From Blasia pusilla (lineage: Eukaryota), in contig CM114271.1 in assembly GCA_050084515.1 (NCBI GenBank), forward strand, positions 42,036,001 to 42,100,000: 64,000 bases of DNA. Direction: 5' to 3'. Under the pieces are notes generated by a model, which saw nothing but the letters and a program-made list of their open reading frames with translations, had not been told where the DNA came from and did no database searches. Numbering within the stretch: position 1 is the stretch's first letter; each line of letters starts with the position of its first letter. Positions 16,586 through 53,891 of the stretch are shown in pieces. The position numbers and the translations under genes were made by a program.

Positions 16586-18914
16586 GCGATGTATGTTGTG
16601 TAGCGATGTGTATGCGCACGACAACTTTCGTTCAACTTCTCCATTGTGCAGATGTCTACCAACGACAACACTTCCAGGACTAGAGGTAAGAAACCAGCAA
16701 GGAGTACACACCAACTCCAACACTCATCATCTACATCTCATTGAATCTACGATCTCCAATCAGATTCTCCCTAGCAAAAACACTCTATAGGACCAGCCTC
16801 TCAGCCTCAGGTGATTCCCTACAATACTGTCCAATGTATTCCATCTATCTTCCATTTTTCTCTATCTAACTACTTGATAGGTCCTTGCAAGTTACATGGA
16901 CTTCACCAATATGATACTCAATGACCTTCGGAGCATTATTACCGCCCAAAAAATTCAGGCTATCATAACCCAAGGAAAAGCTTGGGATGAGAAATTAATG
17001 AGCACCAACAAAGATGCCCTTCCACAAGTGAGCACACTCAATTATGTCTTTTACAATGCATTTGAGTACAAATTCAAAAGCATTCCTTTTTTACTATTTT
17101 CTTCTTTAATGTCTTTACAGGAGTCCAAAATCGAAGGAGGCTTTGTCCTATAAGAAGATCGATTTCAAAGAAACTTCACTAACAAGGTCCTAAGCTAGGC
17201 TCGGCTAGTGTCGGCATTCTTTGTAAAGTCTGTCGACAGAATTTGAGAATTTGTGAAAGGATTTGAACTTGAACGGGAAGAAAACCGATGAGAAAAATCT
17301 AGTGATCGGAAACGAGCTGCCCGGTTAGAAATTGGCGGCAATTTTGAGGAAATTGTTCAAGAGAGACCAGTAATATTTCCGAATTAAATATCCAGACCTC
17401 CTATATTTTCCGGGTAAGAATGAATTTTCCGGGCAGCGCCATACGTCTTTCCATGGGACTAGGGTTGGTACTAGGTAATAGGTACGTTAAGGTACCTTAA
17501 CTAGCATTTAAAGCTTATCTAAACCGAGCATCCGACTAAATTCTTGCCGGAGACTTCCAGGGGAGAACGGAAACTTGCCGAGCATTCTTGTATGCACCGG
17601 CTATAACTGGAACATGAGAAAATTCGACGGGAACAACCGAGTAAACGAGTGATTGCTTTTAGAGAATACCTAGAGGGTTACCCATGCGCATGCATAAAAT
17701 ACTATCGGAGCACTGGTCCTAAGGCAATAGGCTATTTGTAATGGCCTCCGGCGGCATCTGCCTTCATCAACTTGGATCCTTCCGACACCAATTCTTGCCT
17801 TTCCACATGATCATTAATTTGACAACTCCGAAACCTCATACTTGCTTACTGGAATGAAGCTTGCTCATTCCAACGGTGAACATTCCTGAGTTCACACGGA
17901 ATTTACGAATAAATCAAGGTAATTAATGAAGGAAGAAGTTGTAAACGTGGATGCATGTGACCACCGCTTCCAGACTTCCAGTTCGCTCGCGGAATCTACC
18001 GAAATACAGTGTCATAACGCTGTCTGACCAGAAGTTGACGTAAACTTCATTAATCTGTTGTGATTCCATCTCCCTCCGTAACTTGATGACTGGATTCAGT
18101 CATCGTCGCATTTACATCGACTGGTTTTCAGTTACCGCCTCCGTCAATACGGCCACGGGAACTGGGCATGTCCCAAAAGTCACGTGAAGCGGTGCGCTTG
18201 ACTTCACCAACATTCGGACAGTAAATCATTTCAAACGAAATTTCAAAGAATTATAGTAAAATACCAAAATACGTTTTAAATATTATAAAAATCCATTATT
18301 TGATTCACAGAGTAAATGACAGCTATAAACAGGAAAATCATTAAAGAAGGAACTTAGTGTGTCAGTCACCTTTGGAATAGTTTTTTGTCACCTAGGGAGC
18401 TTCTTACGTCGAAGAACTCACGTAGCAAAAGAAAGGATCGCATGCGGCGCCGTGCGCGTGTGGTTTTTTCAATTCGAGGCTACGGAGGCGTCTCACTCTG
18501 ACAGGATGGATAAGAATAAACGTGAATACGCGAGGTGCAAAAACGCTGCTTTCTTGGAAAACCCAAATGCTGTCATGATTGCAAACTGGACAACGCTTTC
18601 GAAAGCCATAGATAGTCGCGGCCATGCGTTTAAGGCCGCGTAGACTAGGCCTTAGGTGCAGGCGGTTCGGCACGGGACTAGGGTCGGAAATACCGGCAGC
18701 GGATATCGACTTTCAAGGACGGACGGACGGACGGATGGAGTTTCGGATGGACGGACGGACCCCAGACGGAAGGACGTATGGACGGACGGAATAAATTCCG
18801 TCCGTGTAGTTTTCCGTTCTATATCACACTCCGTCCGTTCGTAATTCCGTTCCGTATCGCAGTCCGTCCCCTCACCCATACTCTCCCGCCATCCCGTTTT
18901 GAAAAAACAAATTT

Positions 18915-19045
18915 ACCATGCGGATTAGCAAATGCTTCAGAACCGCTCTTCGTGTTAGGGTGGGTTCACCATGCGGATTAGCAAATGCATCAGTACCGCT
19001 GTTCGTGTTAGGGTGGGTTTACCATGTGGATTAGCAAATCCTTCA
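18915..19045. repeat. 53-bp tandem repeat (~2.5 copies) in the MULE left subterminal region
   Basis: ACCATG(C/T)GGATTAGCAAAT recurs at 18915, 18968 and 19021. Confidence 0.85.
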
Positions 19046-19841
19046 GAGGAAGATAGGATTAGCGAGGATCAGACAGGGAGGTTCGGGAAGGTTGGATGAG
19101 TGAGGATTAAGAATCAATTTTCGGACTAAGAAGAGCCTTCGTCGATCAGGGATTGGATGTTCCGAAATGTTCGGGCATTGGATCCGAATAGCTGCGTGTT
19201 TGGATTAGCTAAACGTAGAAGAAAAAACCATAGTCTGACGGATAAAAAGGCTCCAATTTGTTTGGCTCCAAGCTGAACATTCTACTTGAGTACGTTTGAT
19301 ACTATTATTAGTGGCGATTAAGAATCATTTTCGGATTAAGAAGATTTCGGATTCCTAAACGTTCGGGCATTGGATTAGCTGCGTGTTTGGATTAGTTAAA
19401 CGTAGAAAATAAAACCAGAGTTTCTTCGAGCTTTTGACGGATAAAGAAGGCTCCCATCTGTTCGGTCTTGCAGAGCTTAATGAGTGAACCTCAACCTGAG
19501 TACGGTTTATACTATGATTTGAAAGGTATGTATCTCTCGCCTCAAATTTGTTTTTGTAGTAAAGCAGGTGGTTTCTCGTTCTGCCCTTTGTTTGATCAGA
19601 AGAAGTCTTCCCTTAAACCTGAGTTTATGTATTTGAAAGCATGCTGTACCTCACTGCTAGGGTTTCACTGATATATGAATGATACTAAGTATCACTAAGT
19701 AATCCCTATGCATGCTTCGTGTGTTTTTGGTAATTATGAGGAAATCTGCATGTCCGAACACAGACCTCATTGTGTTCTTCTTTTCTTCTTGTGATTGGCA
19801 GCTTCTCAAAGCCCTCGCAAATCTGTATCCACTCTGTCACC

Positions 19842-22800
19842 ATGGTGAAATACACAAAATATTCCACTACATTACAATGTGATACTATCCAAACCCCACC
19901 GCCTGGTCCTTTTTTAAGAGAACACCTCATTTGGTATGGTGACCGAAAGGAGGCATGGATTCCTGCTGAAAGGGTACATGACTTCATCCGTGGTGAAGAA
20001 TATAGACGGCATTATCAGACTACTTTCCGAATCAGCAAGACTGATAAATCAGGACACAAGAATCTTACCATTCGATATTGGTGCGCATATGGACCGCATG
20101 ATTGTAGGGGTTCGGTTTGGACATCTTTGCCCAACGAGGTCTTTGACCCTAACATTCGTCGCATAGGGGGCAAGGGTAGCAGGCTAGAAAACCAGAGCAC
20201 ACGCTTTGGACTATCTCAAGGACGCGGATGCCAATTTCACTTCGCTGTAGTCTATCCAACAGATCGTGCTGGTTTCTGTATGATAAGGCATCTTCATTCA
20301 AACCATGTGGACAAGGAAGGTCGGATATGCCATGGTGACTTGGATAAGACAGCAGATATTGCAAATGCAATTGTCGCCCCGAAACTAAGTTTGCACTGCA
20401 GGGATTTTGTAGAGCGCTTGTTACGAGTGAATGTAAGCCCCAAGAATATCATGAAAGAGCATAGGAGGTGGATTCGCGTACACATCCGTGAAAACCCCAA
20501 TCAGAAACATGCATGGGGTTAGGGACGCCATGCTCAAGCATCAAGACATACTAAATATTAAGCATTCTATGCGAAGGCGAGAAGGGGGATATGACGGAAC
20601 CGATGACGCTACTGCAATTCATCACTGGGTACAAGCACATCTTGAGAATGTAATTTACTATAGGGAGGCTATTTCCAAGTTGAACCAGTCCTTTTGCCTT
20701 GTACTTTCCACACCTTGGATGCTCCAGAATCTCTTAGAGCTAGGGAACGGCGGGGCCATCTCCATGGACGCAACCCATGGCACAAACACCTACGAGGTTA
20801 GTTGGCCTTGATCCTATCATTATTGTAGAATTGATGGAGCCATGGAGCAAGGAACCGGAAATGGTCCTACTTAAGGACTGTTTGAAATGTTGGATGTTTT
20901 GAACTTAGTGTAAAGTGTCTTCAAAGAATACATGATTCAAATGTGTGATTTCCACTACTTTCATTGGACATTATAGGTGAGTCAATGCGTTTATCTTCAT
21001 TGGTAACCATTCCCTTTTGTGCGATTTTTCTTACTTACACCCTGGTGCCTGTTTTCATTTGTCTTCTCTTCTGAACATTATGTTATGTGTGTTCACAGTA
21101 TCAATTATTCACATTTCTGGGTTTTGATAAGTTCCAGGATGGCATGCCATTGGTATGGGCAATCCTACAACGACATCAACACGAAGATCTGGTAGAGACC
21201 TTGTCCCAAATCAAGGACTGGGCACAGAGGAATATACACTCGAGCTTGCAAGATACAGAGGCAAATGAATGGAAGCCTTCATGCTTCATTGTGGATGATT
21301 CGAAAGAGGAACAATCTGCTATCCGAAATGTATTTCCAGGTGTCCGTATTGACCTCTACCTATGGCATGTTCGCAAGAACTGGTTAAAGAATCTGCATCA
21401 ACAAGTGCGTTGTCCAATTACGAAAGCGGACATGAACAGAGACTTGGGTGGTGTAATGTACTCACGTGATGAAGGTATATCATCAACCACCCTGATAGTA
21501 CACTTACATGCTTTTCTCTTTCCCTGGATGGTTTCCTCCACATACCGCTCAGTGACTAATAAATAATTTGCATATGCCATTGCAGATCCCATCGACGCCT
21601 CCTATCGGTTCATGCGCAAGTGGGTTGGATCAAAACGACACTTTGTGAAGTACTATGGAAGCTACTGGCATCCAAAAATTTTGAACTGGGCCAAGGGATA
21701 CCGCAAGCACGCAAGGTCCAACCAAGATACGAACGCTGCAATCGAAAGGTGGCACCACACTCTAAAAATGCACCTAGCGTCCAGCATGCCCACCAAGCCA
21801 ACAAGAAAACTGATATGGCTTGTGCAAATGCTCACTGGTGAAATAGAAGATTTCTTCTGGTACCTAGGCTTCTTGAAACGAGAAGGCATGGTGAGAAACA
21901 AGGCCATACAAAAAGTCATGCTCATGGCAATTAAAAGGGCAAATGACATACCGGATAATCATGTCACATTTGATTTGGTAGATGGGAGGAAATGTGCGAA
22001 GGTGAAAAGTATTTCAAATAGAGATGTTTGGCATGATGTGGTCGACTACGATACAAGAGATGTTGTTTGTACATGTCCTCGTGCCAACGAAGGGTTCACT
22101 TGTAAACATCAGTTCTGTCTTCATACCCGTCTTTGATGTGATTCAGGGTCTTTACATCAGATTTCAGCAAGCTGAATTCCATCTGTTTTAACACACTCCG
22201 TCTGCAGGTAAAATGTCTTCTCCTCTATGGCCACACAGAAGTTCAGTTGTTGTCTTGCTTAGGAACTCGCTTTGGAAGAGAGTGGGTGGGTTTGAAAATT
22301 TGGTGCAAGAGCCACACAAGGATGAATTACATGAAAAAGATCAGGAAGACGAAGATGGAGATATTGGGCATGAGGGACAAGACCATGTGCTTGCTGAACC
22401 TACAAGAAGAGATTCGCCACCAAAAACCACCACCAAGGATGTTCGAGACATCATGGAGAAATGCCTAAACGCTACCCTTGGGGTTCCATTCTCAAATATG
22501 CTCCTAGAACACTTGTTTCAACTAGTGCACAAGGATTTAGATTCAGTTTTGAACCTCAAGGCCAGGGTAGAGACTAACACTCACGTTGAAGGTAATGCTA
22601 ATGACATTGCCACACACTTTCCTGAGCCGTTTGTGGGGAATGAACCACAGAACCGTGGCCTGCGTAGGCGCCTGAATTGGCTAGACCGCTTGCATTTAAA
22701 ACGAAGGTCTCGTGATCCTGTTAGAACTCAGCCGAGTTTCGAAGAGCACCAAGTGGAATCCTTCCACAGAGTGAGGAAAACTAAGTTTTTGAACATGGAG

Positions 22801-23094
22801 GCAGAAATGGAAGGGTCGGCATGTATTAGTTTGGACCTGGTGGCTCTATTGAGCCAAGTTGATGAGAACCCGTCCCATGGCTAAAACGCAGATTCCCAAT
22901 GGCCTTTGGTAAACAGCACACCTCATAGTACATACAGGTCTGCCGGTGTCTCAAAGAGGACAAAAGTGGACATTATGCTTGATAGCCTTGCTGATTCATC
23001 TATTCCATTAGATTGTAAATTACACCCTGGAGCTATAGGAGAAACCAATGACGCCCTAATTATCTTGGACTCTCAAGAAGAAACTCTTGTGTGA
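19842..23094 (+). pseudogene. MULE-family transposase with SWIM finger (multi-exon, a few frameshifts)
   Basis: Exons ~19842-20796, 21099-21474, 21586-~22112 and 22208 onward, with GT-AG introns (third donor damaged). Catalytic motifs MDATHGTN, FIVDD, YLWH (CxxH position) and TNAAIERWH. SWIM CTCP...CKH. Confidence 0.88.
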
Positions 23095-23899
23095 AAGCCA
23101 ATTGAATCTCCTTTAATACTGTGAAGTAAAGCGTTGTAACGTCCTTGTAACACGAAGTAGGAGGTGTTACACGCGAACACATGATATACAGTGTTCTGCA
23201 TGTTTTTAAATCGAACACCTGAAAACATGTGTTCATCCCTTATTATGTTGTGCATTCTTGAATAAAACCTTTTGAATCAAGTTTGGTTTCTACCGCGATG
23301 GCAGCTCTGACAAGATCCCATTCGGATCCCGTTGCCATTTTTGAATCTCATTTATGCACTTCTCAAGTCGGTCGGGCACGCATACCGCGCACGCGCACCA
23401 TTCCACATCGGAGGCTTAACCACGTACAGGGGGGCGCAGCTATAGTGCGTCGTGTTCCACGCCGTAGAGGCAAAACACCGCCACTTTCATCATAAAGAGA
23501 TTCCTCTAAACTAGTTGTAACTAAAGAAGATAGGCTTGACTAGAAAAAAACGCTTTGGACACGCTCCCAACCCTACCCTCGAGCCATGTCCCTCTTCGTA
23601 AAGTTTTAGCGGCGTCGACCCTACCACAGCTAACTTAGTTGACCCTAAATTCGTCGCTAAAATAATCATGTGAAACGAATAGCCGTTAAATAATGTTGAA
23701 GTGCAACAATGACTTGTCTATAATACTCGTATGCGGTGATATGTAGTGAAACAAAGCATATGCAAGATGAACATCGCAGCTCCAGTGTTCATCTTGTTGA
23801 ACACCTCACAAACAGTGTTCCAAGTCCATGGATATGTACTAGGCCATGTTTAGAACCTCAACAAGTATAGAAGACCATCAGTTACAAACCAAACATACA

Positions 23900-26800
23900 C
23901 ATTTAGATTGTGGACAGGAGTGGCTTCAGTTGGTTGAATGCGATAAGTGTGTGAAAATGTCGAGACAGAAACAGATTGTCGACACGAGTTGCCTGAAAGG
24001 GTTGAATGCGATAAGCCATAGAAAATGTCACCCATACATTGGGAACAACACATATCACATTATGCACTTCGACTTTTCATAAAAAAGGCAATTGCAGAGT
24101 ACAAGTGTGATTTCTTAAGTTACATCTAACCCTGTGGCAACCCGGGAGGAAAGGGATTGGCACACAGAAAAAGAGTGTCGACAGAAACAGATTTTCGACA
24201 GGAGTTGCCTGAAAGGGTTGAATGCGATAAGCCATAGAAAATGTCACCCATACATTGGGAACAACACATATCACATTATGCACTTCGACTTTTCATAAAA
24301 AAGGAAATTGTAGAGTACAAGTGTGATTTCTTAAGTTACATCTAACCCTGTGGCAACCCGGGAGGAAAGGGATTGGCACATTGAAAAAAAGAGTGTCGTG
24401 TAAAAGCAGTTGTCGACAGGAGTTGCCTGAAAGGGTTGAATGCGATAAGCCATAGAAAATGTCACCCATACATTGGGAACAACACATATCACATTATGCA
24501 CTTCGACTTTTCATAAAAAAGGCAATTGCAGAGTACATGTGGGATTTCTTAAGTTACATCTAACCCTATGGCAACCCGGGAGGAAAGGGATTGGCACACA
24601 GAAAAAGAGTGTCGACAGAAACAGATTGTCGACAGGAGTTGCCTGAAAGGGTTGAATGCGATAAGCCATAGAAAATGTCACCCATACATTGGGAACAACA
24701 CATATCACAATATGCACTTCGACTTTTCATAAAAAAGGCAATTGTAGAGTACAAGTGTGATTTCTTAAGTTATATCTAACCCTGTGGCAACCTGGGAGGA
24801 AAGGGATTGGCACACAGAAAAAGAGTGTCGACAGAAACAGATTGTCGACAGGAGTTGCCTGAAAGGGTTGAATGCGATAAGCCATAGAAAATGTCACCCA
24901 TACATTGGGAACAACACATATCACATTATGCACTTCGACTTTTCATAAAAAAGGCAATTGCAGAGTACAAGTGGGATTTCTTAAGTTACATCTAACCCTG
25001 TGGCAACCCGGGAGGAAAGGGATTGGCACATAGAAAAAGAGTGTCGACAGAAACAGATTGTCGACAGGAGTTGCCTGAAAGGGTTGAATGCGATAAGCCA
25101 TAGAAAATGTCACCCATACATTGGGAACAACACATATCACAATATGCACTTCGACTTTTCATAAAAAAGGCAATTGTAGAGTACATGTGGGATTTCTTAA
25201 GTTACATCTAACCCTGGGGCAACCGGGGGGGGAATTAGCATAGAACATTTCCATCCTTCCCTCATTGCCATCATACATCCCGCATTTGCACAGAACAAAT
25301 CAACAACCTCACCTTTAGGACATGCCAACATAAATTGCATAAATACAAGGACACCGTCATTGCAAGAGACTGAAATAAGATTGTCTAACCTGTTTTAGCT
25401 TCATGTTGTAGTGCTCAAGGAAGGTTTGCAAAACTGACAAACTCTAGCAGCCGCCATAGATAAGGAACAAAATTGTCCGACCGATAGCCTCTGTTGGGGT
25501 GTTCAATGCAAAACTGCAAAACCTGAAGCAGCCGCCGTCCATCAATAAATTCAAAGCATTCCATGGCACATAAGTAGGCCATAGGTTCATCCTCAAAGAT
25601 AGTAAAAATTTTATACAGAGTCTGCACAATTCCCAACAGCCGGCTATCTATCACACAATGTACCAACACATGTAAATTTAAACTCTTGAGTAGGTTCAAA
25701 ATATCTCTATAGTCTATCAAAATTGTGAAAGAAGTTTTAGAGGCATATTGTCTTGGTTCATGTCATTACATGATGAGGCTGCAACTCTAATGTCGCCCCG
25801 CAAGAGCAATGCTCGATGACAAAGTTTCCATTTCTAACGCATCCAATGCCGGAGTCGAGAAAAGGGGCAGCGGAGTAGAATGAAAGTCTCCGCCATCCAC
25901 ATCAGCATGCTGGTCTTCACTTGGCACCGCTACCTCCCGCTGCACCGCTACCTCCCGCTGTATGTGTCCAACTCCACCCACCTAATTACCAGCTGAAGTG
26001 TTTGAGCCCTAAATTAGCATTGGACAGAAACGAATTTGAAGATCATCAATCTACTTAACATTAATTTTTGAAAGGGATGGAACACAACCTGGTCACTTCC
26101 GCTAAGCACGCCATCATTGTCCAAGTTCACAACAACCGCTACAGGGTGTCCATCTCCCGTCGGCGCCTGCTAAAAAGCCACATGAATGTGTGAGGCAAGT
26201 ACAACTCTTCCAGAAAAAATAAATATCTCAAAGGGTTTAGTATAGGAATGTTCTGTACCTACAATCCCGTCTCTAAGTCCGTCTTCTTCTTCATTTTGGC
26301 CAGCATGATCCTTCTCCTCCTTTTCAAGGACTCTTTAGTTCTCCCGGTAGGATACTTGGATCTCACAATAGGCTCACCCTACACCACCACTTGGTCTGGG
26401 CTAGGCGACAAACGGTATCCACGGGATGCTTGGCCTGCACTGGATACTACCGGATGAAGGCGAGGAGATCTCCTGGTATCACGCGTGACCCTGGAAGATC
26501 TCTCCATGGTGGGCCTACCGGATCTAGAGGTGGGTCTTAGATTCCGTGGGTGCACACTGTTAGAGTCAATTGGCTGTTCTGAAAATACAGGCTCTACGTC
26601 AGGCCGCCCCAACCTCTCCTCCATCCTCTGTGTTCCTGCAAAATCTGGAGATCTATGACCATCATCTAGCGAGTCTGAGTCACTGGAGTCCACAATCTCC
26701 ATATCCACACCGCCCTGCACACATGTTCACCAAATGACCAATCATCTGAAATGCACAAGAGTAGAAAGCATGCATAGAATGTACAAACTTAGCCTAATTT

Positions 26801-28279
26801 CAATGGAGAGGGATAATTCAAGGACTAGAATGAAAGGACAAGATTTGTACCCTGGACACAGCATCAGCATGGCTGCAGCCAAGTCCATCCACATACATAC
26901 GTGTCACTTTCTCTCTCATTTTTGCTAATATAAACGGTTTTTTGGCCTCTTTCCAAACCCGGTAATTATACTTGAACCAAGGGACAAAGTATTGCTCGCT
27001 GAATAACGAGGCATGCCGGTGCGCTCTGCGCATCCCATCTAATACTGCAAGAGACTGCTCCACCTGTTGTTTTCTAGTCTCTAAACCTGCATCCTATCGA
27101 AAAGGTTCTTGCCTATCCATCATCCACACAGCAGATAAGTGGTGGAATGCAACTCGACATCTCCAATATGTCGCACGATGTACCCTATCAGCAGGTACGT
27201 GGGAAGGGAGAAGCTTATGACCGGCCTCTATCCATCCCCTCACTATGGTTGTAGGGCGCACCAAAGCAATCTCCAATTCCTCCCTGGCCTTCTCAAACTC
27301 CTACACCTTGGCTAAGCATGTCCATGAGGTTTGCTGGAATTCTGCAATACGATGAGCTTCAAATGCAATCAGCAGATTAGTAAGTGCAGGCATGGGGACA
27401 TACGGCCCGGCAGCCCTTGTGGCATGGTCTTTGGCTTTGTTGAGGATAGCATTCTTCTTCTGCCGCTTCCGGTTAGCCCAACGTTGCAAGACTGTGCCTC
27501 TAAGTCTGACATTGGCATCAGAAGGATGTGTGTGAGTCCCTGCATAGAAGCGTGTGTGTGAGTCCCTGCATGGAAATCTGCAGTATGACAGAGATTCTGA
27601 CCCTTAAGCAAAACCAAGCAATTACATGAGCAAAACCAGGCAAGTACATGAGCAAAACCAGGCAAGTACATGAGCAAAACCAGGCAAGTACATGAGCAAA
27701 ACTAGGCAATTACATGAGCAAAACCAGGCAAGTACATGAGCAAAACCAGGGAATTACATGAGCTAAACCAGGGATTCAATCACATAGTGGACCCACTCTT
27801 ACCCTCATCTTCCTCGTCATCTTCTATGCCTTGAAAATCAACATCTAACTTCTTCTTCCCTATGATACGAGGTGTTCCAGGCACTGGCCTAAGCCAGTGC
27901 GAAGCAAGGTGGGAGTTGAAAGCTTCCGGCATGCGGAAAAATTCAATGCACTTGGAGCACAAGCAAACGTCTTTCGCTTGTGCTCTCTCGAAAGCAATAG
28001 TGGACCCACTCCCTTTGGATCCCTCCACAGTGATGTTTGGTAAGCCTGCTTTTGAGAGGGGGGTGGGCTTTTGCCCATAAACGCAGCAAACATGTTTAGA
28101 GGCTCAAGGTAGGAAAGCTCTTTCTCCACGTCTCCCTTGTAAAATGGGCCCCATGTAACAACATTATCAACCATACAAGTAAGCATAAAATAGTTACCTT
28201 GGTCATTGAAAGACAACATGCACATGATGGGATGTGATTTCTCAGGTGGAATTTTATTCTCCCGGATGAGAGCATACAC
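23900..28279 (-). CDS. Putative multi-exon accessory gene of the MULE, with a C2H2-like finger; function unknown
   Basis: Chain of minus-strand ORF blocks (28279-27780, 27489-26818, 26720-26379, 25981-25787, 25720-25415) separated by intron-like gaps. Contains CSKC...FNSHLASH. Convergent with the transposase. Exon boundaries not fully resolved and may be disrupted. Confidence 0.5.
23960..25225. repeat. 216-bp tandem array, ~6 near-identical units (exon+intron on minus strand)
   Basis: GAAAATGTCACCCATAC at 24021, 24237, 24455, 24671, 24887 and 25103. Confidence 0.97.
27608..27772. repeat. 22-bp minisatellite (~7 copies) in a probable intron
   Basis: CATGAGCAAAACCAGGCAA(G/T)TA repeated. Confidence 0.92.
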
Positions 28280-28397
28280 ATATTAGGTGTAGGCTTATGT
28301 GATAACTAGTAAATATGAAACTAAATAAAACGTGAAGAGCTAGACGCAAGGCAATGAAAATTCGCCATTCGGAATACCAGTATTCGTAGGACGTGTC

Positions 28398-28720
28398 CAT
28401 GACCGCCCAAACAACCCATCTAAAAAGTAGAAAGAGAAGCTTATGACCGCCAAGCTCAAGTCGTCTACAAGGTAGACGTGAGGCTTGCCCATCACCGCCC
28501 AAACAAGTCGTCTAAAAGGTAGACGACTGACTTGCCCATCACCGCCCAAACCCGTCGTCTAAAAGATAGACGACTGGCTTGCCCATCACCGCCCAAACCC
28601 GTCGTCTAAAAGATAGACGACTGGCTTGCCCATCACCGCCCAAGCCCGTCGTCTAAAAGATAGACGACTGGCTTGCCCATCACCGCCCAAGCCCGTCGTC
28701 TAAAAGATAGACGTGGGGCT
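28398..28720. repeat. 47-bp tandem repeat with internal 8-bp hairpin
   Basis: Unit GCCCATCACCGCCCAAACCCGTCGTCTAAAAGATAGACGACTGGCTT. About 5 good copies plus 2 degenerate ones. Confidence 0.92.
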
Positions 28721-28938
28721 TGTCATGATTCTCAGCTTACATGAATACTATCCCTATATTGAAGTGGTATATGTAGGTACTTTGGTATATGGTTTACGAC
28801 AAGAACTAGGCCTCAAAAAATAAACACAAACCCTAAATCTCCTAAACATTCCCTAGGATTTCAAGATGCAGAAGATTATCCTCCACCTGCAAGAAGATGA
28901 GTCAAGCACACCTCATTAGTCACTTAGTTGAATTCGGT

Positions 28939-30336
28939 CTACGAAGGAACACAACTTGTATGACGAAAGAGGATGAACACACATGCACTATGTGTTAAGA
29001 GCTTACCCCGAGCTAAATTCATAATGGCCAATGAGCTGATAACTTCGGATAAATCCACATGTTGGTCCTTTTCGAAGTGTAGTTGATCATCAATGTCAGT
29101 CTGGTCGATAAGGTAAACCCTTTTAGGAGTGACCCCAATCACCCAATCGGCTATCTGTTGTGATGCCTCCATTAGATTCTTGATGTCTTGAATCTTGTGG
29201 GCTGTCACCTTACCTCCCTCGTCACCAACTACAACAAACTCAGTGTTTCCTCTTTTCTGGAAATAGGAGTGAAACCAAACGTGATTTCCAACCAACCGTG
29301 CTTTCGGACTGAAAGCCACGTGGTACATAGCATCCCTAGCTGCCTGTTCTATGCAATGGTATGTATCTAGAGGGAACCCTAGAATGATCCAATCATCCAA
29401 ATAACTACTGGATAGTAGGTGTGTGCGTTTGCAAATAATATCTTCCAGATAGAAATCAGGGCATGAGTTTGTATGAATGATGGGGCTTACCCATGTTTCA
29501 ACCGACCCTTGATTGCCAAACAGGAAACGTGTAACATTTTCTGGTTTACTAACTAGCATATTCAAAGTCTGCATCCCATTTGCATCTAAGAAGTGGACAT
29601 TATTGGACATGATGCAAAACGAAGTACACTACAAGCCCTACAACTGAGGCAAATTCACATTCAAGACCTAGGTGGACGGTAGTGGCAGATTTGACAGCAA
29701 CAAGGAATTTGAACGCTTATGTGCTCCCCTGCAAAGAATTGCAAATGCTGGTAAGGAACTTGATCTGTGTGAGCCATATTTCTACATCAGGAAGACATAT
29801 TCATACCTACATCAAATATTTGGCTTTCTCTGGTCAGTTGGATCTGAGTGGAGATATCCTCTAAATATGCCTAGTATTTGTGCAGCAGAGATAGAAGGTC
29901 AACCCACTGGTAAACATATAATGAGACGGAGTCTGAATGACTATTTACCTTGTGTCTGTGCTCAAAGAAGTTCCACACGATGTACAATAGGCGACACGAT
30001 GGTTTGTATGGGCGCTGAAGAGAACAAAGACAGAAAACGTTCAGGTTTTCTTCTCACTAAAATAATTCATGACAGGGCAGCACAACCAAGATTTGCATCA
30101 TGCGCCCTACATTACTTGGGCAACTGAAAGTATTCATTCAAAGACGATTAAGTCGATATATCCCTCAAAACCGCATGTTTAGTAACCAGTTCAAACAAAG
30201 TTTGTATACTGCAAATAGATTCAAATATATTTCCATTTCCTGAAAAGTTGCCACACGTTGTACAATAGGCGACACGATGGAGATGTATGAACACCTGGAA
30301 AAATACAGAAACACCAACCTGGTAATTGTCGAACAA
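28939..30336 (-). CDS. Putative second accessory gene region of the MULE (223-aa ORF plus upstream exons with duplicated HRVAYCTxCG)
   Basis: Open 223-codon frame at 28939..29610. A 30-bp duplicated motif encoding HRVAYCT(T/S)CG lies at ~29973-30002 and ~30251-30280. Confidence 0.4.
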
Positions 30337-31879
30337 AGTTAGAAAGAGGAGAGAAGAGAAGAGAAGAGAACGGGCTCCTTAATTTAGTTCAACCTTTTCA
30401 CTAAAACTCGGTCTTCGTAGACCGCTGCACATTCCCTCTATCATGCTCAAGATTTATGACCGTCATCGTCGTGACGACAACGGCTGAGGTGATGTGCAAA
30501 GCGAAGTCGTGAAGTATAGAGAAATTCGAAGAAACGAAGTTTCTCGATCCCGCTTACATTTCACGGTTTCTAAGGAACTTTAGGTCCGACACTTTGGACC
30601 TAAAGTTGATGTCCGAACCTAAAGTATCACTACTTATCACTTTGGATCTCCTTATGCTCACTCTACCACAAACAGACTGCATGACTAGTAAGTTGAGGAA
30701 TTGGTGAGTTTGTGCTATGATATATCGAGAACAGAAATGGCTACAATTGAGGTTTGTAATTCATGCCATGTTTATCATGCATAGATCAATACTTTAGAGC
30801 AGAACTAGAATGCAGCGTGCATTGGGATGAAGTTGTTAATGACAGACCTAATCATCATGATCGCAAAGCATGTGCATGCCTTTCCTCGCGTCGGGGACAA
30901 GCAACGTAGAATTAGAAATGAAGCAAATTGAAGTAAAGCTTCTTAGATGCAGTTGCTATACACAGATCTGGACTTCCTGATTGTTGCTCAAGAAAGCCTT
31001 GAAGATGCTAGGGACCAGCCAAGTAGAAGTTCGCTGTTTCAGTGTTCATCTTGTTGAACACCTCACAAACAGTGTTCCAAGTCCATGGATATGTACTAGG
31101 CCATGTTTGGAAAAACAGAAACATCAACAAATCGAACGAGTGCACCCCTAAGGTAAAGTGTTGTAACATATCATGACCAATCATGAATTTGGAGTCTTTT
31201 GCTTCTATTCAATTGACTACTGGATAGGAGTGGGAGGAAAGAGTGAAAGTACTCATTTTCCCCAAAGAATAAATGGCAACCCAACGATAAGTAGGTTTTC
31301 TAGACAAGATCAAGAAAAAGAACAATCATCGATGCAAATGGAACCTCATGTAAGGCGAGAGACTTGGCGTTTGCATCGATTGTTCTTACAATGAAAACAG
31401 TGAAATGCATAGTATTGCTGGTATGTTAGGTGTTGTACCGAAGAATTTTGGGTTTGTAAACGCACATCAAAATCTCACCCATGCTAAGATAGAGCGACAC
31501 GACGACGACGACCGTCCTATACTCATGTTCATCGGGGAGAAGACGAAGGCACAAAGTGGAGAAAATTTGACTTTCAAAAGACTATCCAGGCAGCAAAAAA
31601 CGAGGACACCTATGGTCTTTTGAACGGAAAGTGGACTCCGAAATCTTGCCGATAATTACGTTAATATCACATCGCTCCAAATGTATATCAGTCGCTTATC
31701 AAAAAAGGAAGCAGTTAATCCACTTTGTGTAATCTACCATCTTCCTACTCTAATGTACTCAGGTAACAAGCCGCTTGGAGGCGGGGATATTGTCTCCAAC
31801 TTACACTCCAAATTATCCCGTAGGAACCGTTCAATGCTCAAAAGTACATTTCCTTAAACGCATGGCCGCGGCTATCTAT

Positions 31880-32450
31880 GGCTTTTGTCTTTGTCAGATC
31901 GAACAATTTTGGGTGCATCTTTGAAGTTCATCCTATGTATAACAAAGAAGCTTGAGAGGCGAAGGAGGATGAAGATGAAGACAACAACAATGGTACCACA
32001 AAGAAAGACAAACTTAGCATCAAGAAGAGAGGACTTCGTTCTGAAGCTCGAGCATAGTTTGCTACTACAGCGGATTTGGACATGGAGTTGCTTAGTCCCC
32101 TTCAGCAGCAGCGTATGAAGTATAAGCAAAGAAAACGGACCCTTCAGGGTCGGGAAGAGAGTGTAAGTCATGCATGGCTTTGAGTTTCAGAAAGGAGTTG
32201 ACATTGGAGATATGTCGATGTATTTCCTTTTTACTAAATGGAGGGGTCAATTCTCGGAGATGAAAGGATGCGGGTGCAAGCTTGTCCATAAAACTCTGCA
32301 AACTCGACAAATATGCCCACAATTCTCTGCAAATTTGATCTCACAGTGGCTTCATTTCTCTTCCTCACAAATAAAGTTCCGGACTGTAATGCATATTGCC
32401 CGTGACTTCTATGGCTCACGGTGTGACTCCCTAAGGACATAGAACACCGG
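31880..32450 (-). CDS. Putative further accessory ORF fragment near the right TIR
   Basis: Overlapping minus-strand ORFs 32092..32322 and 31872..32171 downstream of the right subterminal repeats. No recognisable domain. Confidence 0.25.
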
Positions 32451-32619
32451 CTAGTGAAATTCTTAAGTGTACTAAGAGAAGAGAATCAGCAACCTCATAA
32501 ACGGATGTCAATGTTGCTGGTGCTCGGGTCCAGAGATTCGATTGAATGACTGAGCGGCTGATCAAAGAAAAGAGGAGAAGAAAAGAGAATAGAAGAGAAA
32601 CACCAACCTCATAGGCCCG

Positions 32620-32960
32620 GAAGGCGATTTGTGGCAGAAGAAAGCTCTCCAGGCGGATTTGCGGATTTGTGGCAGGCCGAAACGAAGCTCTCAAGGCGGA
32701 TATGCGGATTTGTGGCAGGCCGAAACGAAGCTCTCCAGACGGATTTGCGGATTTGTGGCAGGCCGGGACGAAGCCCTCAAGTCAATCGTTGGGACCAATT
32801 CTGAAGTGATAGCGCATACAGCGAAGACCGAAAAACCTCAGCAAACCGAAAAGACGCACTGCATCGAAATAACGCAGCAGATCGCGGCGTAAACGCAAGC
32901 TCTCAAGGCGTATTTGCGCATTTGTGGCAGGCCGGGACGAAGCCCTCAAGTCGATCGTTG
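32620..32960. repeat. ~43-bp subterminal tandem repeat of the MULE right end
   Basis: GGATTTGCGGATTTGTGGCAGGCCG...GAAGC recurs about 5 times. Confidence 0.85.
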
Positions 32961-33884
32961 GGACCGAATAGACGCAGCAGACCCAAAAAATGCAGCAGAC
33001 CAAAAACACGCAGTAGACTGAAAAACGCAGCAGACTGGGTTTCGGGTTTGGCGTTCGGAGGTGAGGGTTCCGTCCGCTCCACCCCGCCGTCCGCTCCGCT
33101 CCGCCGTTCGTCCGTCCATCCGTGAGCTCATCCGTCCATCCGTCCAGCCGTCCGTCCGTCTGTCTGTCCGTCCGTCCACCCGTCCGTCCTCTGTCGGACT
33201 CCGTCCGCTGCCGGTATTACCGACCCTAATCCCGTGCCGAACAGCCTGCGCCTAAGGCCTAATCTACGCGGCCTTAAACGCATGGCCGCAGCTATCTATT
33301 TCTTTGGCCCTACCATTTCGAAAAGTTGAAAATGCAACAAATCTGTGATTTTCCAAGGTTTTGTTGTTTACATCGAGAAAGAGTATGTCTCGAATGTAAT
33401 AAAATATAAACATAGTCTATACCATAGAAACTAAATCATACGGAAATAACTTTTCGTTTTCTTATAGAAATTTTGTTAAGAGCATGAAGAAAGTAAAAAG
33501 TAGTCGTAAGGGGTAAAGAGTTTATAATTAAAGAAAAATAGATCGAAAATCGAAAATATGAAAAAAAATTAAATAAGAAAAAAGAGAGATAATTAGGCAA
33601 GCTATAAACATATCAGATTCAGACACCAATGGTTGTCGTCTGCAAATGGATGAGACCATGAGTGGTCTTCAAGGTTGCACATGGAAAAAGTCAATGTCTG
33701 CGTACTTATGTCCGTCCCTAAGACAAACACGTCCGTGCGGGCCTGGGTACCCGAGCCTGCCTCACCTATAAGGTAAACCCGCGTTCGGTAGCCCGCACCC
33801 ATTTTGTAACATGTACTAGGCCCGCACATGGCTCGCATTGGGCGGGTTTAAGGCTCGCGCAGTGCCCTTAAGGCGGGGTTAGGC

Positions 33885-34192
33885 CCTAGTTGCACAAAAA
33901 CGAACATGGACGGACAAGTCTGAACATGTCCACTAACATAGATTGCAAGAAGTGGGGCCCATATTTATAGTTCATGATGGAAGGCACAACAAGGTGAGTG
34001 GAGCAATAAGGAGGAAGGAAGTGGAGGTGGAGGAAGGAAGAAATAAAAAAGTATGGAACACAAAGGCAAGTCGGGGGAATGAGAAAGAAGAGGAAGGTGA
34101 GGCCTATATGAACAAGTCCTTGGATAGGTTTGATGTAAGTCCACAGAAATGGACATGTCTACGGATGCAGACTTTATCAACATGCAACCTTG
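33885..34192 (-). mobile_element. Nested hAT-type MITE, inverted
   Basis: Reverse-complement homolog of 1816-2132, ending TGCAACCTTG. TSD is degenerate (GGTTAGGC/GCTCAAGC). Confidence 0.8.
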
Positions 34193-34311
34193 GCTCAAGC
34201 TTGTATAGGGGCCCGCAACTCAGCCCGCAGTGTGTTGCTGGCTTGAGCCCACCCTGAAGGAGGGCCTAACTCACTTTACCATGGGTTGGTGTAGGCCGCG
34301 TGTGGGCTAGG

Positions 34312-34627
34312 CAAGGTTGCATGTGGCAAAATTCTATGTCCGTGGACATGTCCATGTCTGTCCTATGGAAGGACTTGTCCGTATGGGCCTCACCTTTCTC
34401 TTCTTTCTTATTCGCTTTACTTGCCTTTGTGTTCCATACTCCCCCATTTCTTCCTCCCTCCACCTCCACTCCCTCCTCCCTCATTGCTCCTCTCATCCTT
34501 GCCTTGCCTTCAATCATGGACTAAAGTTGTGGGCCCCATCTCTTAAAACCCATGTCCATGGACATATCCAAACTTGTCCGTCGATGTCCGTCCTAAGGAA
34601 GGAATTGTCCATTTTTTTGCAACCATG
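34312..34627 (+). mobile_element. Nested hAT-type MITE
   Basis: CAAGGTTGCA...TGCAACCATG with a perfect TSD GGGCTAGG at 34304-34311 and 34628-34635. Confidence 0.92.
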
Positions 34628-35790
34628 GGGCTAGGCAAGGGCTAAGAGCCCGCACTCCCGTTTGATTCGTGCCCTACTAGGCTGCCAAGCATGCATCCGT
34701 TTGCATGTCATGTGCATTTCTGTGCAACCTTGGTGGTCTTCATCCACTTTGGCTCCATGTATCAAAGTCATCGCTTTTGCATTTTATAATACCTTCTATA
34801 GACATTTATGATAATAAGTAATGAAAACAAAGAGAGAATGTCTAGAAGAAGGGACATTTTGTTTCTCAAGTGAAAGGTGAGTACATGTTTTGAGAAAACT
34901 ATTGAAAGACAAGTACCCAAATACTGTAAGTGTAGAAGGAATAAAGCCATGGATAGCATGGTTCATCGTCCATATAACTGAACTCATTGATCCTTGCCTC
35001 CTACCCCAAATTCTTTTCCATGCAACTCAACATTCCAAGTTAAAATGTGTAGGACGAAAAACCACTATATCTCCTAAGAGAAAAAAAGAAATTCCGATCC
35101 AATTATAGATCAGCTGGAAAATAGATGGTTCCTTGCATTGTTGAAGGTAGAACAACTTATTAATCTTGACTAGTGTTGTACCTTGAACTTAGAAGTACAA
35201 GCCATTGATTATATCTCTTCTCTAATCATATTATGTGAAATTATTCATTCTCTTCCATGTAGGCATCAAAGAAACTGGATACCTTTCCAATTCACCACGC
35301 CACATGTAAAGTATGCAACATCTATATGAGAGTTACGCCCAAGACGTAACTCTCTTATCTAAACATACTTTAAAAGAAAAAAAAGAAAGAATTAGAGGAT
35401 TCGTAAAAATCTCCTCTCTTGTGCTTATACATAAATGTAGATCATATAAGTAAGTGTCTAAAGTTTCCTTAGAGATAATGATTGAAATAAATTTTCTAAT
35501 CCGAAGTCTTGAAGATAAGCTCTTGAAGTCCAAGAAGTTCTTACATATTCAATTGGCCAAATGTAAGTATGAACTTTTGATCTGCTTTTATAGCAATTCG
35601 AAGAAGAGAAGAAGAATATTTCAATTTTATTGGAATGATTGATCTTCCATCCCTTAAGATCAATTTATCTCCTTGAAGGAACCTTTAAATCCCAACTTAT
35701 AATAGATATGACCAATTAAAACCCAATTTCCCAAAAAATCCAATGATATAGTGATTGTTAAGGAATTTCCATACCTTTAAAAGAAATAGG

Positions 35791-46849: not shown

Positions 46850-48056
46850 TAATACCGGCCAAGACATGCATTCCGTTGACTCGCGTGGGCAAAGGATTCT
46901 CCCGTAAGGTTTCTAATTGAGGGATCCATTATCATAGATGGCCAATACCGGTAGGGTCCCATCCAATTTAATTTTAATTTTCCGGGAACTTTAGTCGGTT
47001 ATCATACAATAGCACTAAGTCGCCAACATTGATAGATTGTGGCCGGAGATGTCGATCGTAACGTTTCTTACGTTCTTTTTGCACTTGGGTTGTCCGTCGT
47101 AACGCGAGCATGCGTGCTTCTTCCAACTCCACTAGAGTCTCATTCCTGTGTTCGATAACTTCGTCCGCAGCTTCCGTTCTTGTGCCCTCCAATACCCGGT
47201 AAGTGGGCAACGCCCATTGAATAGGTGTTAAGGGATGTACGCCATACGTCAAGAAGAACGGGGTGTAGTTTGTCGTCACCTTCTCAGCTATTCGGTACGC
47301 CCATAAGGCTGGGGCAATTTTTGTGTCCCAATCATAGGAATAGGTTACCGTTAATCGATTCAATATTCGGCAAATGAGGCCGTTCGATTTTTCCGTCAAC
47401 CCGTTGGCTTTAGGGTTGTAGGGAGTGGTTTTCGATGCTTAATGAGAAAGTGGGAAGTGAGAGACTCAATAGTCTGGTTCGGAAGTCGTCCCGGTCACCG
47501 ACTAGTTCCAACGGACGACCATAACGCGTGATAATCATCTCGTATAAAAACTTAGCCATGCTTTCACATGTCATCTTTCCGCGTGGCTACCGCTTCAACC
47601 ATCTTAGTACAATAGTCCGTGGCGATAAGAATATACTTCCGCCGGGTTTGGCGAGTGGCCTGGGAGATAGGGCCTACGAAGTCAATGCCCCATTTTTCAA
47701 AGGGAGCTAGGGGCATGATGGGGACCAAAGGCCACCGTAGTCGCTGTGGGTCGACTGCCGCCTTTTGACAGGCATCACAACTCCGAATAAAATTACCTTC
47801 GTCTTTGTACATAGTCGGCCACCAATATCGTGCGGCCAAAATTTTCTTCACGGTATTTTTTACCGCATAGTGTCCACCGGAATTAGCCATATGCAGAGCT
47901 GTGATGACCTGGGGAACCTCTTCAGCTTCCAAGCATCTTCGATGCTCTTCATCAGCACCTAATTTGAATAAGACCCCTTGACAGAGCTCGTAAGGGCCTA
48001 TCCGATGTAAAAAAACTGCGCGTTCTTCCGCTGTCATCGGGGCAGGAAGTCGCAGA
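46850..48056 (-). pseudogene. Ty3/gypsy integrase (Athila/Tat-like lineage)
   Basis: HMANSGGH...YWWPTM...CDACQ (HHCC), FEKWGIDFVGP, ATDYCTKMVEA, NGLTEKSN, ALWAYR, TPFFLTYG and a GPY motif. Frameshifts near 47400-47560. Confidence 0.92.
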
Positions 48057-48445
48057 GTCATGTAGGAATCTGGACAGACCGTTCACCTTCTTGTGGCCTT
48101 TCTCAGTAGTCTTCTTGATGTGTGCATCCCATATGCAATCTTCCGAGAATTCTATGCCCAGATAGATGTAGGTAGCCACATGGGGGATCTCTTGGTCACC
48201 CCAAAGACCACTTTGTTGGTCTTGGTCCTCCTCCTTGCCATTGAAAATCATCACACCGCACTTCAGGACATTTGCCTCCATGCCCCACATGTCACACCAG
48301 ATTTTGGTCAGGGAGATCATCTCTTGGAGTTTCTCTCCTGTTTCCTCGAGGCCACCAAAGTCATCAGCAAACATGAGGGCAAAAATAGAGTTGTTGCCCA
48401 CCCGTATGCCTAGTCCACTATCCTCCATTTCTTCCAATAGGGAAT

Positions 48446-48450
<5 letters not shown>
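48057..48450 (-). mobile_element. LINE 5' part (RT core), partner of 36108-37171
   Basis: ALMFADD...LQEMI...NVLKC...YIYLGI...KVNGLSRFLHD joins in frame to ITSEVKR at 37168. 5'-truncated at an (AG)14 run. Confidence 0.88.
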
Positions 48451-48478
<28 letters not shown>

Positions 48479-48510
48479 TTAATTCTCTCTTTGTTGAATC
48501 TCTTTTGAAT

Positions 48511-48845
48511 TTCATGTGGAAAAAGTCTGTGTCTGCAGACATATCCATGTTCGTGGACTTATGTAAATCCTAGGGAAAGATTTATCTATGTAGGCCCCAT
48601 CCCCCTCTTCTTTCTCTTCCCCTCTATTTTCTCTGTGATCTGGACTTTCTCATTTCTTTCTCCCTCCATCTCCACTCCCTCCCCCCTTATTAATTGCCTC
48701 GCCCGCTTGTGCATTGTCTAAGTTATCTTCCACCATGAGCTATAAGCATGGCACCACCTCTTGCAATGCATGTCCGTGCACATGTCCAAACTTGTACATC
48801 CATGTTTGTCCTAGGGATAGACTTGTCCATTTTTGTGCAACCATG
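48511..48845 (+). mobile_element. Partial hAT-type MITE (left TIR lost)
   Basis: Homologous to 1816-2132 and ends TTTTTGTGCAACCATG. Confidence 0.7.

Positions 48846-49559: not shown

Positions 49560-53891
<4,332 letters not shown>

Follow-up and report, generated by a model that had tools for sequence, protein, structure and literature searches.

MuDR, of the Mutator system of maize, is about 4.9 kb long and carries two convergently transcribed genes, one of them for a DDE transposase with the Pfam MULE core (PF10551), between long terminal inverted repeats (TIRs) and repeat-rich subterminal regions. Transposases of Mutator-like elements (MULEs) have also been turned into host genes. FHY3/FAR1-FRS proteins and Jittery-like MULEs share a WRKY-GCM1-type finger with a long basic insert, followed by a MULE core and a SWIM finger, and Babu et al. 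2006 (PMC1702500) unite Rcs1p/Aft2p, FAR1-like factors and related MULE transposases in one insert-containing WRKY-GCM1 family, with finger, transposase and SWIM as the typical order. In PMC4948706, the FRS genes are an angiosperm-era exaptation, and the MUSTANG (MUG) genes, likewise conserved plant genes of MULE origin, are described as angiosperm-specific, with Physcomitrella listed with 0 and 0 members. The DNA considered here is a stretch of 64,000 nucleotides from Blasia pusilla (assembly GCA_050084515.1, contig CM114271.1, positions 42,036,001 to 42,100,000, forward strand), hereafter the window, in whose own numbering all positions are given. Its segment 18602-33305 is very probably an old copy, inactivated by mutation, of a MULE transposon with a moderate number of copies. 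Among the proteins compared here, its transposase is the nearest mobile-looking relative of a SWIM gene family conserved across land plants.

The identification of the element rests on its ends and on the coding core between them. An inverted-repeat search of 17500-34500 found two TIR arms 14,500 nt apart. The 64-kb window contains exactly two copies of a 27-nt TIR core, whereas 100 shuffles predict 0.00 occurrences. An earlier note on this DNA, made from the letters alone, had proposed 96-nt TIRs at 18608 and 33299; these are real, but each arm reaches 6 nt further out, to 102 nt. Just inside both TIRs, 4-nt arrays of GGAC and CCGT mirror each other, with other short tandem units alongside. 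Between the ends, PF10551 matches the open reading frame (ORF) piece at 21075-21566 with E 8.5e-10 (39.4 bits, cut-off 27.6), so that the TIR-bounded MULE-type element of the earlier note stands. The same core gives a second, weaker match to the ZSWIM1-3 RNaseH-like model PF21056 (E 4.9e-4, below the Pfam cut-off; E 2e-7 in the Riccia relatives introduced below), a likeness shared with animal ZSWIM1 and ZSWIM3, whose N-terminal domains belong to different families. Long TIRs, a PF10551 DDE transposase, two convergent genes, repeat-rich subterminal regions and membership of a multi-copy family some of whose copies have decayed are all features of MuDR. Unlike MuDR, the window element is far longer and shows no 9-bp target-site duplication; in place of the MuDR-type (HxC) finger, its transposase has an N-terminal domain that resembles the insert-containing type; and its second gene has no detected similarity, so that no link to mudrB is claimed.

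The transposase gene is distributed over + strand ORF pieces at 19740-20522, 20455-20811, 21075-21566, 21567-22136 and 22142/22192-22884, which together hold every block quoted in the earlier note (IPAERVHDFIRGE, YWCAYGPHD, RGCQFHF, HVDKEG..CHG..D and APKLS). Homologue alignments and splice-site sequence guided the gene model (Table 1). Four public runs under one coded species label were mapped to 17000-35000 at at least 90% likeness: X15, a whole-genome shotgun DNA run (both mate columns added), the RNA runs X18 and X19, and X2, which supplies contigs. A joint for intron 1 is not among the 15 of 48 RNA joints listed. Intron 2 is confirmed by spliced reads in X18 (9) and X19 (7), with 0 in X15, and the intron-containing MULE-SWIM gene announced between the TIRs is therefore real. 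X15 has no intron joints and so behaves as DNA. The conceptual protein has 706 residues, with an X at the break; its last exon follows the frame that opens at 22208 as far as the end of that frame at 22468. It retains all DDE positions, as had been stated, with D in MDATHG, D in FIVDDS and E in AIERWH, and a SWIM finger of the form CxC..CxH, CTCPRANEGFTCKHQ, follows the transposase core; the Pfam SWIM model does not reach its threshold in the window ORF piece.

The supposition of a functional transposase gene fails for this copy, which is a pseudogene and lacks the intact transposase of an autonomous element. A private 1-nt insertion at 20519/20520 shifts the frame at a point flanked by conserved W and RD residues, and the alignment with the homologue P0003 is continuous across the change. 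Of 31 DNA reads, 27 lack the extra base, as do all RNA reads of the two runs (8 of 8 and 16 of 16) and one X2 contig. As all 24 RNA reads have the intact frame at this position, the transcripts come from other, better-preserved copies. A 55-nt intron at 20468-20522 was considered as the cause of the frame change and rejected: homologues align through it, and the reads differ by 1 nt. The second lesion is the donor of intron 3, which reads TT at 22113, where loose ends of other copies on X2 contigs read CATCAG-GT. Lastly, residues 582-614 of the Riccia protein P0002 align to 22178-22276 and residues 617-799 to 22282-22839 in different frames, which makes a further frameshift near 22277-22281 probable. 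Reads and contigs contain other family copies that are free of the first two lesions.

The interior of the element belongs to a family of roughly 6-15 diverged copies, as its DNA depth is about 6-15 times that of the flanks. In X15, depth is 4.6, 1.3 and 2.3 in three flank bins, 17.6-40.7 over the transposase gene (19404-23009), 14.3-32.8 over the second gene (25414-29620) and 7.4-12.6 over 29621-32625. The likeness of the X15 reads to the window (n=2620) is 90-95% for 1489, 95-99% for 1029 and at least 99% for only 102. The ends of the element are repeated less than the interior, or are more diverged; X2 depth is 6-13 in the bins that hold them, against 2-3 in the flanks. RNA depth over the transposase region reaches 13.8 in X18 and X19, with the first mate on the - strand, and introns are spliced on both strands of the element, the orientation of the splice sites agreeing with the strand of the reads. 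The family is thus both multi-copy and transcribed, to judge from interior DNA depth above the flanks and from spliced RNA reads, and it looks alive. A further class of RNA reads (3 in X18, 12 in X19) passes from 21646 directly to 22523; the 876 nt left out do not have the ends of an intron, which suggests transcribed, internally deleted family members.

These data bear on a rival view, in which the gene is a domesticated host paralogue that has two inverted repeats unrelated to it as chance neighbours, or that such repeats took up passively. Liverworts do have conserved host-like paralogues with this architecture, and the missing target-site duplication would fit such an arrangement. However, the raised DNA depth extends over both genes, most reads show the 90-95% likeness of diverged repeats, and this copy has frameshifts and a dead splice donor and sits on a long branch outside the conserved clade (see below), all of which makes a host paralogue highly improbable.

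Several observations weigh against the reading of 18602-33305 as a MULE copy, most of them at its ends. A simple MULE insertion is expected to be flanked by a target-site duplication of 8-11 bp, and none is present at 18601/33306 or at 18601/31886. Shifted termini around TTTCGAAAG were tried as well and rejected, nothing convincing being found at either candidate right end. The absence may be due to age, to recombination between copies or to a misplaced terminus. Within the element, at 31852-31885, the TIR tip occurs a third time, so that the right end is not simple, and X15 depth over the right subterminal bin is only 5.5, about twice that of the flanks, which implies that fewer copies share the right end at at least 90% likeness. 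Copy number is taken from read depth; a second copy with both TIRs and an empty site were not seen in these data. Moreover, each run contains at most 45% of the sampled words of a 5-kb query, and the sequenced individuals may therefore not carry this particular copy.

The right end also admits a chimeric or composite origin, in which the 102-nt TIRs derive from two insertions, through ectopic recombination or an adjoining truncated element, and the true right end of the gene-carrying element is the tip at 31885; 18602-33305 would then never have been a single transposition unit. The lack of a matching target-site duplication and the 91% likeness of the TIRs would agree with this, as would the internal tip, which is 97% like the left tip, while the outer right tip differs at 4 of its first 16 positions. 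In addition, one X2 contig reaches no further than 2 nt past 31885, and depth is lower to the right of the tip. Yet the tip at 31852-31885 amounts to just 34 nt of TIR, a target-site duplication fits the end at 31885 no better, and the GGAC and CCGT subterminal arrays are mirrored at the outer ends. An X2 contig of depth 13.5 also runs from inside the tip into 31886-32229, so that this junction may itself be multi-copy, which counts against a composite. A composite origin is, on these grounds, somewhat unlikely, and the decayed MULE copy bounded by the outer TIRs is preferred.

The wider interest of the element lies in its protein. The N-terminal 208 residues have no Pfam model. Among 5.8 billion proteins, the named matches of this domain comprise three Riccia sorocarpa proteins and a single Calypogeia fissa protein (41-44% identity, E 7e-33 to 9e-40), so that the closest named relatives of the window protein appear to be in liverworts. 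Among 1.84 billion cluster representatives, phmmer finds 88 at E <=0.001, 24 at 1e-10 and 6 at 1e-30. Weaker matches include five representatives of the conserved angiosperm SWIM family, P0032, P0037, P0038 and P0041 (E 1e-9 to 2e-8) and P0061 (E 2e-5). The Hevea protein P0037 aligns to the window by tblastn in both its N-terminal part (1.2e-26) and its core (5.6e-20). A search with P0037 returned 657 proteins, and the 120 listed are 61-87% identical and spread across eudicots, including Nelumbo, Tetracentron and Proteaceae; their usual names are "SWIM-type domain-containing", "zinc ion binding" and "uncharacterized protein LOC...". None of these 120 has a precomputed Pfam domain, and two members that were rescanned have none above threshold.

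A profile of 16 intermediate representatives extended this family to ferns (Ceratopteris, Adiantum) and to a second angiosperm group of about 690 residues (Cannabis, Melia, Syzygium), designated group B beside the P0037 group (group A). In liverworts, P0015 (Riccia R1sor_017425) is 86% identical to MPTK1_8g13000 of Marchantia polymorpha (P0210) and 75% identical to a Calypogeia protein. The family, which the earlier note had taken to be angiosperm, thus has conserved orthologues in liverworts and ferns, and any domestication would predate the split between liverworts and vascular plants. Its members (among them Hevea P0037, Nelumbo P0158 and Marchantia MPTK1_8g13000) are conserved on short branches, with 60-87% identity among eudicots and 75-86% among liverworts, unlike the window protein, which is multi-copy, TIR-flanked and broken. 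The window protein is 27-35% identical to them and collinear with them over about 650 residues; it has every N-terminal block in common with them, as well as the DDE positions, the SWIM finger and the five Cys/His columns. The search against plant proteins for which the earlier note had called therefore gives significant similarity over the whole length, and the blocks it quoted are conserved columns.

The conserved family seems to have kept its catalytic and zinc-binding residues. In a quick MAFFT alignment of the 120 group A proteins (P0037 and the P0092-P0209 range), the first Asp is present in 113, the second in 118 and the Glu in all 120; the four SWIM ligands are found in 120 of 120 and the five N-terminal Cys/His columns in 119 of 120. 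Elsewhere the first-Asp column holds His in three of four group B proteins, Asn in two of four fern proteins and His in one of three conserved liverwort proteins, where an alignment error is possible. Host genes that keep the DDE triad and the zinc ligands may still cut or bind DNA catalytically, beyond a role as transcription factors.

The family probably includes the Arabidopsis genes At4g13970 and At1g60560, as the earlier note proposed, on the evidence of annotation names: AT4G13970 is labelled "zinc ion binding" (PMC6265505), as are the Salix, Capsicum, Cucumis and Euphorbia matches. The two angiosperm groups fit two Arabidopsis paralogues, and no Arabidopsis protein is among the 120 of 657 P0037 matches listed. 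In the searchable literature, which does not treat them as derived from a transposon, the two genes occur in one unrelated paper each, though supplements or the gene list of Hoen and Bureau 2015 may contain them, and the Marchantia and Riccia gene names do not occur in the searchable literature. The accessible parts of PMC4948706, PMC5715367, PMC6446971 and PMC1702500, whose topics include MUG/FRS phylogeny, exapted-transposon phenotypes and MULE diversity, do not mention the family.

A tree places the window protein outside the conserved clade. It was built with IQ-TREE in quick mode (LG+C20+F+G4, 778 columns) from 39 rows, all retrieved with the family's own N-terminal domain: the conceptual protein of the window, 21 representatives selected by length from the 88, two further liverwort matches, five more of the 120 angiosperm proteins and ten of the 13 profile matches. 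It is drawn by midpoint, without an outgroup. The window protein falls in a clade of 11 rows with a Shimodaira-Hasegawa-like approximate likelihood ratio (SH-aLRT) support of 100, together with the transposon-like proteins of Riccia and Calypogeia and unnamed representatives; the end branches of this clade are long and uneven, that of the window protein being 0.91. The opposite side, of 27 rows (SH-aLRT 96), contains the conserved liverwort trio (branches of 0.02-0.19), the ferns and the two angiosperm groups in an order compatible with the species tree. The placement of P0022 and several other long rows is uncertain. On this evidence the window protein is the nearest transposon-like relative found here of the conserved plant family rather than a member of it. 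The earlier note had called the element a relative of the ancestor of the host genes and asked for a tree with host orthologues. In this unrooted tree the window clade does adjoin the conserved clade, as a statement about sister groups rather than about ancestry; the mobility of most rows in the transposon-like clade is likewise deduced from divergence and copy number, and not from TIRs. We read the tree as a fast-evolving, multi-copy, transposon-like lineage beside an old and slowly evolving host-gene lineage, and infer from the MULE architecture that the change went from transposon to host gene.

The similarity could also reflect nothing beyond shared MULE ancestry, as with FRS or MUSTANG, and with outgroups the conserved clade would then join other MULE lineages. 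The tree is unrooted and assembled through the family's own N-terminal domain, and the language-model neighbours of P0037, which serve as a lead only, are MULE and ZSWIM1/3 clusters, including arthropod, fungal and rotifer MULE clusters at scores that are very high throughout. However, an N-terminal domain of about 200 residues without a Pfam model is shared block for block, and as a query it retrieved only 88 of the 1.84 billion representatives. The Pfam MULE score also decreases in steps: it is 47-51 bits in the Riccia transposon-like proteins and 28.2 bits in the conserved Marchantia gene, falls to E 0.057 for P0061 of angiosperm group B, and gives no match for P0215 of the same group or for group A. 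Mere common descent within the MULEs is therefore unlikely. A special relationship between the window element and the conserved SWIM family is preferred.

The N-terminal domain itself is probably an insert-type WRKY-GCM1 zinc finger, to judge from its predicted structure and alignment. Fingers of this type have Cys..Cys..His..His/Cys ligands, a four-stranded fold and a basic insert of 20-70 residues between the cysteines. The WRKY-GCM1 ligand columns are conserved in the alignments, and 48 residues, which include a basic stretch, separate the conserved C81 from the conserved C130, in agreement with the insert-containing family of Babu et al. An AlphaFold model from a 50-row alignment has a high mean confidence (predicted local distance difference test, pLDDT, 86.9; predicted template modelling score a little lower but still good). 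Foldseek finds no match in the PDB at E <=0.001, and all structural matches are weak (Z < 8). WRKY domains fill the top four Foldseek rows (E 0.04-0.15), with match probabilities from high to very high, WRKY18 being the best (E 0.04) at the upper end of that range. A Foldseek-independent scan of 48,161 chains gives one at Z >=5, Aft2-DNA (Z 5.9, 101 residues, root-mean-square deviation 4.8), followed by WRKY33, WRKY1 and another WRKY (Z 4.3-4.6), and by GCM and WRKY4 at 3.6, with unrelated folds at Z 4.0-4.6 among them. FHY3/FAR1-FRS offers a parallel both in the order of finger, core and SWIM and in the conversion of a MULE transposase into a host gene. Unlike those proteins, neither the window protein nor any of eight relatives scanned matches the Pfam FAR1 model PF03101, the conserved relatives span liverworts, ferns and angiosperms, and most members keep the DDE residues.

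The second gene of the element is convergent with the transposase gene. Its RNA depth of 52-61 (first mate on +) is several times that of the transposase gene, and since its DNA depth is like that of the transposase gene it belongs to the repeated unit. Three of its introns, at 28887-29006, 27540-27802 and 26715-26850, have canonical GT..AG ends when read on the minus strand; three more joints have inserted letters or non-canonical ends. The first exon is an ORF of 201 codons, after which the frame meets stop codons in this copy, and several 1-nt differences separate the copy from the RNA reads. In those reads 207 nt (28525-28731, with the 47-nt array within) are replaced by 39 other letters (joint 28524>28732, 23 and 27 reads), which suggests that the array has expanded in some copies only. 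One downstream ORF piece has a CxxC..HxxxH pattern. None of 20 ORF translations from 23262-33216 passes a Pfam cut-off, the best sub-threshold leads being Bc2l-C_N (21.1 bits against a cut-off of 27) and the Hop2/TBPIP match given below, and the first exon has no match in PHROGs. Glutamine synthetase fragments were rejected as relatives of the first exon, their best ESM Atlas score, although high, staying below the level set for acceptance; a single-sequence AlphaFold model of this exon (pLDDT 36) is unusable. Toward the right end, a + strand ORF at 31624-31857 resembles the Hop2/TBPIP winged-helix model PF07106 below its cut-off (E 0.0021, 18.4 bits against 22.8), and may, as a lead only, represent part of a meiotic host gene that the element took up. 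RNA reads match this stretch as far as 31854, where they go over into different sequence. The "several cargo genes" of the earlier note thus reduce to one second spliced gene without a known family and transcribed fragments, and no captured host gene passes a Pfam threshold.

Table 1. Features of the element at 18602-33305 (positions in the window)
Feature	Position	Strand	Description or basis
Left TIR	18602-18703		102 nt; 91% complementary to right TIR 33204-33305
Left subterminal repeats	18717-19047		GGAC array and 33-nt and 53-nt tandem units; Tandem Repeats Finder
Transposase exon 1	19842-20796	+	N-terminal Cys/His domain and first catalytic Asp; ORFs in two frames, homologue alignment
Transposase intron 1	20797-21098	+	GT..AG; homologue alignments jump from 20793 to 21099
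Transposase exon 2	21099-21474	+	MULE core, second catalytic Asp (FIVDDS); Pfam PF10551, alignment
Transposase intron 2	21475-21585	+	111 nt, GT..AG, phase 1; RNA joint 21472>21584 (cut +2)
Transposase exon 3	21586-22112	+	Catalytic Glu (AIERWH) and SWIM finger CTCPRANEGFTCKHQ; alignments
Transposase intron 3	22113-22207	+	Donor mutated (TT for GT); without in-phase GT
Transposase last exon	22208-22884	+	Stop codon 22882-22884; probable frameshift between 22276 and 22282
216-nt tandem array	23964-25228		5.8 copies, between the convergent genes; Tandem Repeats Finder
Second gene	~29610 to 25169	-	Multi-exon, spliced, transcribed; RNA reads
22-nt tandem array	27607-27772		Tandem Repeats Finder
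47-nt tandem array	28460-28713		Inside second gene; Tandem Repeats Finder
Stretch matched piecewise by transcripts diverging elsewhere	31109-32162		RNA loose ends 31109, 31854, 32162; joint 31152>31961
Internal TIR-tip copy	31852-31885	right-end orientation	34 nt; 97% complementary to 18602-18635; RNA reads diverge from the window at 31854
Right subterminal repeats	32642-33189		43-nt and 18-nt units, CCGT array; Tandem Repeats Finder
Right TIR	33204-33305		102 nt; inverted partner of 18602-18703

The surroundings of the element are rich in transposable elements, with no clear host gene among the ten largest other ORFs scanned. A separate high-copy repeat at 33995-34495 (continuing to 35000) has inverted arms of 134 nt (83%), inside which lies a 53-nt inverted pair, and resembles a miniature inverted-repeat transposable element; X15 covers it at a depth of 29-49 and X2 at 266-591, compared with 2-3 for the flanks. 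Minus-strand reverse-transcriptase ORFs lie at 47952-48569 and 50347-51276 (RVT_1, E 1e-24 and 4.5e-4).

The family unit, as it may be pictured from this copy and its relatives, would consist of TIRs of about 100 nt, repeat-rich subterminal regions and two convergent genes, the transposase on the + strand and the second gene on the - strand. Intact members would make a transposase composed, in order, of the N-terminal Cys/His domain, a DDE RNase-H-like MULE core and the SWIM finger. The N-terminal finger might recognise the TIR or the subterminal repeats, and the DDE core would cut and paste the element; the broken window copy could at most be moved in trans. Present-day mobility of the family, like a role for the second gene, is something we infer.

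It is conceivable, as a tentative proposal to which we give rather less than even weight, that a MULE family of this liverwort type is the surviving mobile lineage from which the land-plant-wide SWIM family arose, by a domestication that preceded the split between liverworts and vascular plants and is older than those of FRS and MUSTANG. The SWIM family would then comprise genes of the Marchantia Mp8g13000 type, the fern genes and the two angiosperm paralogue groups, probably with At4g13970 and At1g60560. The element itself is ordinary in kind, a decayed MULE copy, and its value is as a bridge to the conserved genes: the angiosperm "zinc ion binding / SWIM-type" proteins are assigned no MULE domain by Pfam, whereas the liverwort transposon-like proteins match that model and share the N-terminal domain. 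It would offer a concrete, testable origin for an uncharacterised family that is conserved from liverworts to eudicots, apparently with its catalytic residues kept.

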